Assembly: GCA_964486045.1 (NCBI GenBank)
Contig: CAZALK010000015.1
Location: 1-64,000, forward strand
Direction: 5' to 3'
Origin: an uncultured archaeon
GTDB taxonomy: Archaea; Asgardarchaeota; Lokiarchaeia; Sigyniarchaeales; SOKP01
Length of the DNA stretch: 64,000 nt
The position numbers were made by a program, and so were the translations under genes. This document shows, one piece after another, positions 1,759 to 1,855 of the stretch. The notes under the pieces were generated by a model that was not told where the DNA came from, ran no database searches, and saw nothing but the letters and a program-made list of their open reading frames with translations. Position 1 is the first letter of the stretch. Each line of letters opens with the position of its first letter.

Positions 1759-1855
1759 ATTACACCCACGCAAGTGGGGTTGAATCGAGTGAATTTAAAA
1801 AAGAAAAGGAAGATGTTCAATTACACCCATGCTTAATTGAATATTAGTAGGGATG
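1759..1855 (+). CRISPR. Degenerate orphan mini-array: one intact type I-E-like repeat, a 32-nt spacer and a decayed second repeat
   Basis: 1759-1787 ATTACACCCACGCAAGTGGGGTTGAATCG (29 nt, CCCAC/GTGGG hairpin). Spacer 1788-1819. Second copy starts ATTACACCCATGC at 1820, giving a 61-nt period. No cas genes in the window. Confidence 0.6.

Follow-up and report, generated by a model that had tools for sequence, protein, structure and literature searches.

A type I-E CRISPR unit beside a split top6A gene in a Lokiarchaeia genome, probably the eroded stub of a mobile orphan array

A short CRISPR unit lying near the left end of the window, by which the whole 64,000-nucleotide stretch of DNA from an uncultured Lokiarchaeia archaeon is meant, is best regarded, with a probability of roughly 0.68, as a relic, namely the trailer-end stub of a mobile and often cas-less orphan type I-E array module that was left by deletions and is now inert. 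What remains would be the last repeat, the last spacer and the broken terminal repeat of the array (Table 1). It is proposed that the array module arrived with an island that integrated into top6A and restored this gene with a foreign 3' end, that the leader, whatever units had preceded and most of the trailer were then lost by deletion, and that a local inverted duplication broke repeat 2. Since the leader is gone, the uptake of spacers would no longer be possible; the native promoter of the stub has probably been lost, and the stub most likely does nothing now.

Table 1. Features of the CRISPR unit and of the adjoining DNA (positions in the window).
Feature	Position	Strand	Description
PAS-histidine kinase gene	3..1471	-	Broken into three frames; decayed island cargo
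Repeat 1	1759..1787	+	Intact type I-E repeat of the Lokiarchaeia family; 5-bp stem, 4-nt loop, 8-nt 3' handle TTGAATCG
Spacer	1788..1819	+	Single, 32-nt, purine-rich; no target detected
Hairpin	1812..1845	+	11-12 bp by fold prediction; the inserted bases repeat the spacer end and the repeat-2 start in inverted orientation
Repeat 2	1820..1860	+	Terminal copy with damage; like the family repeat at 1820-1833 and 1846-1855, separated by an insertion at 1834-1845
Probable far end of the family trailer	1894..1924	+	Near-palindromic core TTATAGTAGTATAA at 1905-1918
Orphan 3' end of host top6A	2010..2339	+	About 110 codons (Topo VI A/Spo11 Toprim, Pfam PF21180); right island junction

By sequence comparison, the unit at 1759-1787 is a true type I-E CRISPR repeat, in line with the initial annotation, and its Asgard origin is likewise confirmed. 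It is identical at 27 of 29 positions to the commonest repeat of a family that forms arrays in other genomes, one of which (L088) is located directly behind a type I-E operon of cas8e, cas11, cas7, cas5 and cas6e. When a profile was derived from 61 different repeats of the family, all from other genomes and without the window unit, it gave this unit 51.6 bits; the repeat of the genome's own array reached 31.1 bits, and no other site in the genome exceeded 8.9 bits. The unit is single-copy in this genome of 5.18 Mb (31% G+C) when up to 6 mismatches are allowed. At the level of the unit, the features of a type I-E array are present: a 29-nt stem-loop repeat with the 8-nt handle common to arrays adjoining I-E cas genes, a 32-nt spacer and a distance of exactly 61 nt between the starts of the two copies. 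The arrangement first reported was thus found as described, a direct count agrees with the 20 of 29 positions said to be shared with an I-E-style repeat, and the 5-bp hairpin (CCCAC/GTGGG) that had been noticed together with the handle does fold (z -2.8). Over 20 repeats, 97% of the cells at its stem positions are paired, with covariation of the stem not above that of shuffles. Two-copy matches of at least 11 nt at about 61-nt spacing number 41 in the genome and are therefore common by themselves, so that the reality of the unit follows from the family match and not from the two-copy spacing alone. A candidate third repeat relic at 1706 was rejected, as it reaches only 3.4 bits and lies 53 rather than 61 nt upstream.

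The second copy had been described as decayed, and the nature of its damage can now be refined, in that a 12-nt insertion interrupts it and the last 5 handle nucleotides are gone, with T's in their place. Aligned without gaps, it agrees with repeat 1 at 14 of 29 positions; when the insertion is taken out, the count is 21 of 29, and the sequence tracks the family profile to position 24, the likeness stopping at 1855. Its stem contains one uncompensated G-to-A change, and in the 29-nt frame it forms no fold on its own. An active array possesses a downstream intact repeat for the 3' hairpin, which is missing here owing to the insertion, the stem mismatch and the loss of the handle. An inverted repeat like that at 1812-1845 arises in 0.75% of shuffles, and the inverted insertion would represent a template-switch-like lesion.

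On the upstream side, the conserved leader of the family, which an active array would possess, is absent before 1759 and from the whole genome; a TATA-like TTTAAA is situated 23-28 nt upstream of repeat 1, a kind of hexamer that is frequent in such AT-rich DNA. On the downstream side, the 31 nt at 1894-1924 are, judging from alignment, the probable surviving end of the family trailer, with a modest match to the trailer in G065, a genome of the same genus: 29 of 33 columns agree, and the score was equalled in 7 of 1000 shuffles and in 23 of 2000 real AT-rich fragments (P about 0.01 by these two controls). The palindromic motif was also considered as a genome-wide recombination site and rejected, since the 18-bp palindrome occurs 7 times against a control median of 3 (range 0-13). 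As it is not enriched and about 20 near-matches to the core are scattered in the genome, the motif is kept as weak support only.

The setting of the stub points to an island edge. The open reading frame at 2034-2339 encodes only the Toprim end of Topo VI A, and relatives carry at this locus a gene of about 400 codons behind top6B. The full-length top6A of the genome is found on contig C28 (1572-2774, L033); compared with close relatives, identity is 90-95% over its 5' part but drops to 76-80% over the last 110 codons, while the fragment in the window reaches 94-97%. The switch from host to foreign sequence on C28 lies about 20 codons before the start of the window fragment, and about 19 host codons (about 57 nt) are missing at the junction. 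This pattern suggests that top6A was split and restored, giving a hybrid gene on C28 with a host 5' part and a foreign 3' part, and leaving the orphan host 3' end in the window; an island would have entered top6A, supplied a new 3' end and undergone a deletion at its right junction. We infer that the two ends, on C28 and on this contig, belong to one island, the interior of which is unassembled, in a bin with 7.8% contamination and with no contig-end links joining C15, C28 and C32. The connection is supported by the exact 14-mer core at 1905, which occurs elsewhere in the genome only twice, both times at the C28 island end. The hybrid gene alters the residues around the Toprim DxD from DSDPYGHYIH to DADPYGMYIF.

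The stub is about 150 nt from the orphan top6A end, and the junction deletion together with the three-frame kinase indicates that it sits in decaying island-edge DNA. Reading of the top6A loci of 29 relatives showed no conservation of the unit at this site. Family or related arrays occur at island edges beside split host genes in the window, on C32 and in G114, and no integrase was seen at these junctions or assembled ends. The last 300 nt of contig C17 of this genome and positions 1-400 of C32 hold two copies of the upstream region and 5' part of one gene (starting MTDNHNQ), and the C17 copy is cut at a 55-nt sequence common to the C28 end; this duplication looks like a second gene-restoring island, with the trailer of the C32 array at its edge. 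In G114, an 8-repeat I-E array of the C32-like type (L125 10645-12495; C19 20644-22494) lies near a truncated 5' piece of a HEAT-repeat membrane gene, which belongs to the top6/MCM cluster and has its window copy at 3526-6864, and insertions seem to have struck this cluster repeatedly. Further along in the window, the MCM open reading frame called at 7313 has 617 codons from a TTG start and apparently lacks its N-terminal part; a frameshift may lie ahead of it, within 6864-7313.

A search pattern made from the window unit and its homologue in G065 retrieved the repeat family from 10 metagenome loci and 2 contigs of MAGs, one of them titled Promethearchaeota, and so far it has been seen only in Promethearchaeota-type DNA; a limited literature search returned no published description of it. 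The arrays keep a regular 61-nt period over 2 to about 17 repeats. A strongly conserved leader is present in 11 of the 14 other family arrays, and a conserved trailer, whole or partial, in six; in the DNA examined, cas genes accompany only the array at L088, several of the contigs being short. The repeats are strikingly mixed within one array, with 61 distinct sequences among 99 (L085-L096 and L123 16412-17051). The exact subfamily was found only in this genome and in G065 among 400 genomes of the phylum. In G065, an 11-repeat array has both leader and trailer, and 43 kb from it, on one and the same contig, there is a fragment of 2-3 repeats that lacks a leader and has a cut trailer. Together they resemble an earlier phase of the loss at the window stub; cas5, cas6e and cas7e were not found in G065, which is 100% complete by markers. 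The leaderless fragment is near a BREX-like gene block, by reading of the open reading frames only.

The family arrays L093 and L094 sit amid many small virus- or plasmid-like open reading frames. Single repeats directly precede, or flank on both sides, single small open reading frames of unknown families (L088 7255-7616; L082 7950, 8393 and 11636, contig C45 of G097), and two of those in G097 precede near-identical genes; these arrangements, more unusual than the window unit, might represent gene cassettes bounded by repeats or messenger RNAs cut by Cas6. A contig labelled Patescibacteria (L096, JANBVM010000037.1) carries the same repeat family and a leader nearly identical to that of L085, and is probably mis-binned or transferred DNA. 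A 231-kb phage contig of IMG/VR (L121, L122) holds I-E-like cas genes that lie dispersed among several arrays having a repeat of a related GTKTRCCCC type. Other Lokiarchaeia also have I-E mini-arrays with one or two spacers and with repeats of the C32-like type (L055 1495-1585 in G099; L059 in G160; L071 in G037), the one in G160 consisting of one intact repeat with a decayed repeat on each side.

The reading as an eroded stub is favoured because family arrays elsewhere mostly have a leader and often a trailer, which are lost or reduced here, and because G065 displays the predicted intermediate. It is further favoured by the uncompensated lesions of repeat 2, the decayed neighbours, the absence of a spacer target above chance, and the lack of conservation at the site in relatives, the exact subfamily having turned up in just 2 of the 400 genomes from the phylum. 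Counted against it are the flawless repeat 1 beside a damaged repeat 2, which is also the pattern of regulatory mini-arrays, the TTTAAA before repeat 1, the apparently intact Cascade-Cas3 set in the genome, the modest trailer match and the linkage of the island ends by inference only. The earlier suggestion of a scar of a deleted CRISPR-Cas island holds in so far as an array stub lies at an island edge; the lost part need not have included cas genes, because most family arrays have none in the DNA examined.

The initial annotation had noted no cas genes in the window, and its expectation that a Cascade might be encoded elsewhere was borne out. Genome-wide searches placed the only cas5, cas6e and cas7e of the genome not on this contig but on contig C32, which encodes Cas3 and all five Cascade subunits (cas3-cas8e-cas11-cas7-cas5-cas6e), apparently intact, together with an array of about 24 repeats. 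The cas1 gene of C32 is reduced to a stump of 95 codons that runs into a fragment of a broken cas2; within this locus (L032 440-10863), cas1 and cas2 have collapsed by an internal deletion, and a 270-codon open reading frame without Pfam match lies between them and the array, of which spacers 4 and 23 are alike at 27 of 32 positions. Cross-processing of the unit by the Cas6 or Cascade of C32 is conceivable. The C32 array repeat agrees with the unit at 20 of 29 positions and differs at 3 of 8 handle bases, and identity between the C32 Cas proteins and their counterparts from the operon beside the family array at L088 is 33-48%.

This machinery gives room for a guide or regulatory RNA loaded in trans, a pair of readings that remains doubtful even when both are taken together. 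The first of them is a working one-spacer guide of the island, which would be expressed from a promoter nearby, processed by the Cas6e of C32, taken up in trans by Cascade-Cas3 and aimed at an unsequenced rival virus or element. The intact repeat 1, the canonical 32-nt spacer, the complete-looking Cascade-Cas3 set and the knowledge that mini-arrays of mobile elements target other elements speak for such a guide, but the divergence of the C32 repeat and proteins just described speaks against it; moreover, repeat 2 has no sound stem, and the new hairpin would occupy the last 7-8 bases of the spacer. No protospacer was found in IMG/VR with three exact patterns, nor in 161 class genomes when 3 mismatches and any base at each sixth position were allowed, and in the own genome the best non-self match was 24 of 32, with shuffles at 23-25. 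The comparison of the spacer with viruses and promoters, which the initial annotation had proposed with PAM and seed, yielded no target above chance in IMG/VR or in the I-E loci of Lokiarchaeia, of which eight were scanned. The weight of this outcome is lessened because Asgard viruses are thinly sampled and because none of the about 120 family and C32 spacers tested led to a credible protospacer in the DNA searched, and hence to a PAM; the missing match is accordingly weak evidence. The absence of a target nevertheless makes debris more likely than a working regulatory RNA, and a functioning guide is considered unlikely. A cluster of spacer matches at 826-839 kb of contig C1, a glycosyltransferase region, was rejected as chance.

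The second reading is a crRNA-like regulator or decoy of the CreR/CreA, Cracr or Racr type, which would silence a promoter through Cascade and a short seed or soak up Cas6 and Cas7. A near-perfect first repeat, a degraded second one and no leader, as in published regulatory mini-arrays, agree with it, as does the location on a mobile island like that of phage crRNA-like RNAs and Racrs, but no cas locus surrounds or adjoins the unit, the cas genes being on C32 without an assembly link to this contig end, and no toxin gene was recognised beside it. In the eight I-E loci, seed matches extended over at most 9 positions, short of the 10 nt or more expected of a CreA/CreR-type match, and none had an AAG-type PAM. 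Host sites combining an 11-position seed with a PAM of the E. coli type numbered 7, against 4.7 for shuffled seeds (95th percentile 14), which is chance level. This branch of the initial annotation, including a solitary-repeat anti-CRISPR, therefore gained no positive support and appears quite improbable. An extended version, in which the unit still acts as a guide or decoy RNA of the island and cas-less Lokiarchaeia modules on the edges of gene-restoring islands borrow the host I-E Cascade against rivals or host defence, is speculative and rather unlikely.

A homing guide that steers the island to top6A in the manner of CRISPR-associated transposons could be suspected from the arrays at island edges beside split host genes and the junctions without integrase, but the best match of the spacer in 30 top6A loci, 22 of 32, equals that of shuffled spacers (mean 22.0), so that the unit does not behave as a homing spacer, and no transposase gene lies beside the Cascade operons of C32 or L088 among the open reading frames read, to the ends of the contig or locus; this largely refuted reading is very improbable. 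A chance hairpin, IS end or REP-like element, for which only the 41 two-copy pairs could be cited, is refuted to the point of being negligible by the single, unscattered copy, by the 27 of 29 match to a repeat forming regular 61-nt arrays adjoining cas genes, and by Rfam, whose sole hit, a Chlorobi-1 match of 17 bits against a threshold of 50, was rejected as an identity.

As a relic, the stub matters little in itself; its value is that of a marker of a Lokiarchaeia I-E repeat family whose arrays are mostly cas-less and, owing to their mixed repeats, can be missed by array finders that require at least 3 near-identical copies. The family thereby adds about 100 spacers with which Asgard archaea could be tied to their viruses. 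Meanwhile, the stub marks an island that splits and restores top6A, a Spo11 relative. If its RNA were active, this would be an Asgard mobile element co-opting the host Cascade in trans, of which a limited literature search returned no description.

Among known systems, gene-restoring integrative elements are exemplified by e14 and phage 21 in icd of Escherichia coli. The island resembles these in supplying a replacement 3' end and orphaning the original one, and differs in that the target is top6A, no integrase is seen at the assembled ends and no duplicated core is left, the latter owing to the loss of about 19 codons at the right junction. CreA and CreR crRNA-like RNAs (bioRxiv 10.1101/2023.03.03.530964; 10.1101/2023.03.10.532045) share with the unit two repeats, the first intact and the second degraded, one spacer and the absence of a leader, but their place is inside or next to a cas locus and they have a seed-and-PAM match to the promoter of a cas or toxin gene, neither of which applies to the window unit. 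Regulatory mini-arrays have generally been described with an intact first repeat, a degraded second one and no leader, and those without conserved position or targets have been interpreted as degraded (bioRxiv 10.1101/2023.03.03.530964).

Phage crRNA-like RNAs and Racrs, which are carried on mobile elements (bioRxiv 10.1101/2024.10.29.618823; PMC10651486), are possible analogues. Like them and like viral mini-arrays, the unit lies on a mobile element, being on the island side of the split top6A (an island deduced from two contigs), in a host having a type I-E system of related repeat type. In contrast to Racrs and viral mini-arrays, its repeat agrees with the host array repeat at only 20 of 29 positions, the remnant of a second repeat means that it is not solitary, and it has no target, no adjoining viral genes and decayed surroundings. 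With orphan or eroded arrays on mobile elements, the unit has in common a real repeat, a canonical spacer length, a degraded terminal repeat, no adjoining cas genes and a site on an island, and the family to which it belongs is set apart from them by unusually mixed repeats within one array and by a conserved trailer.
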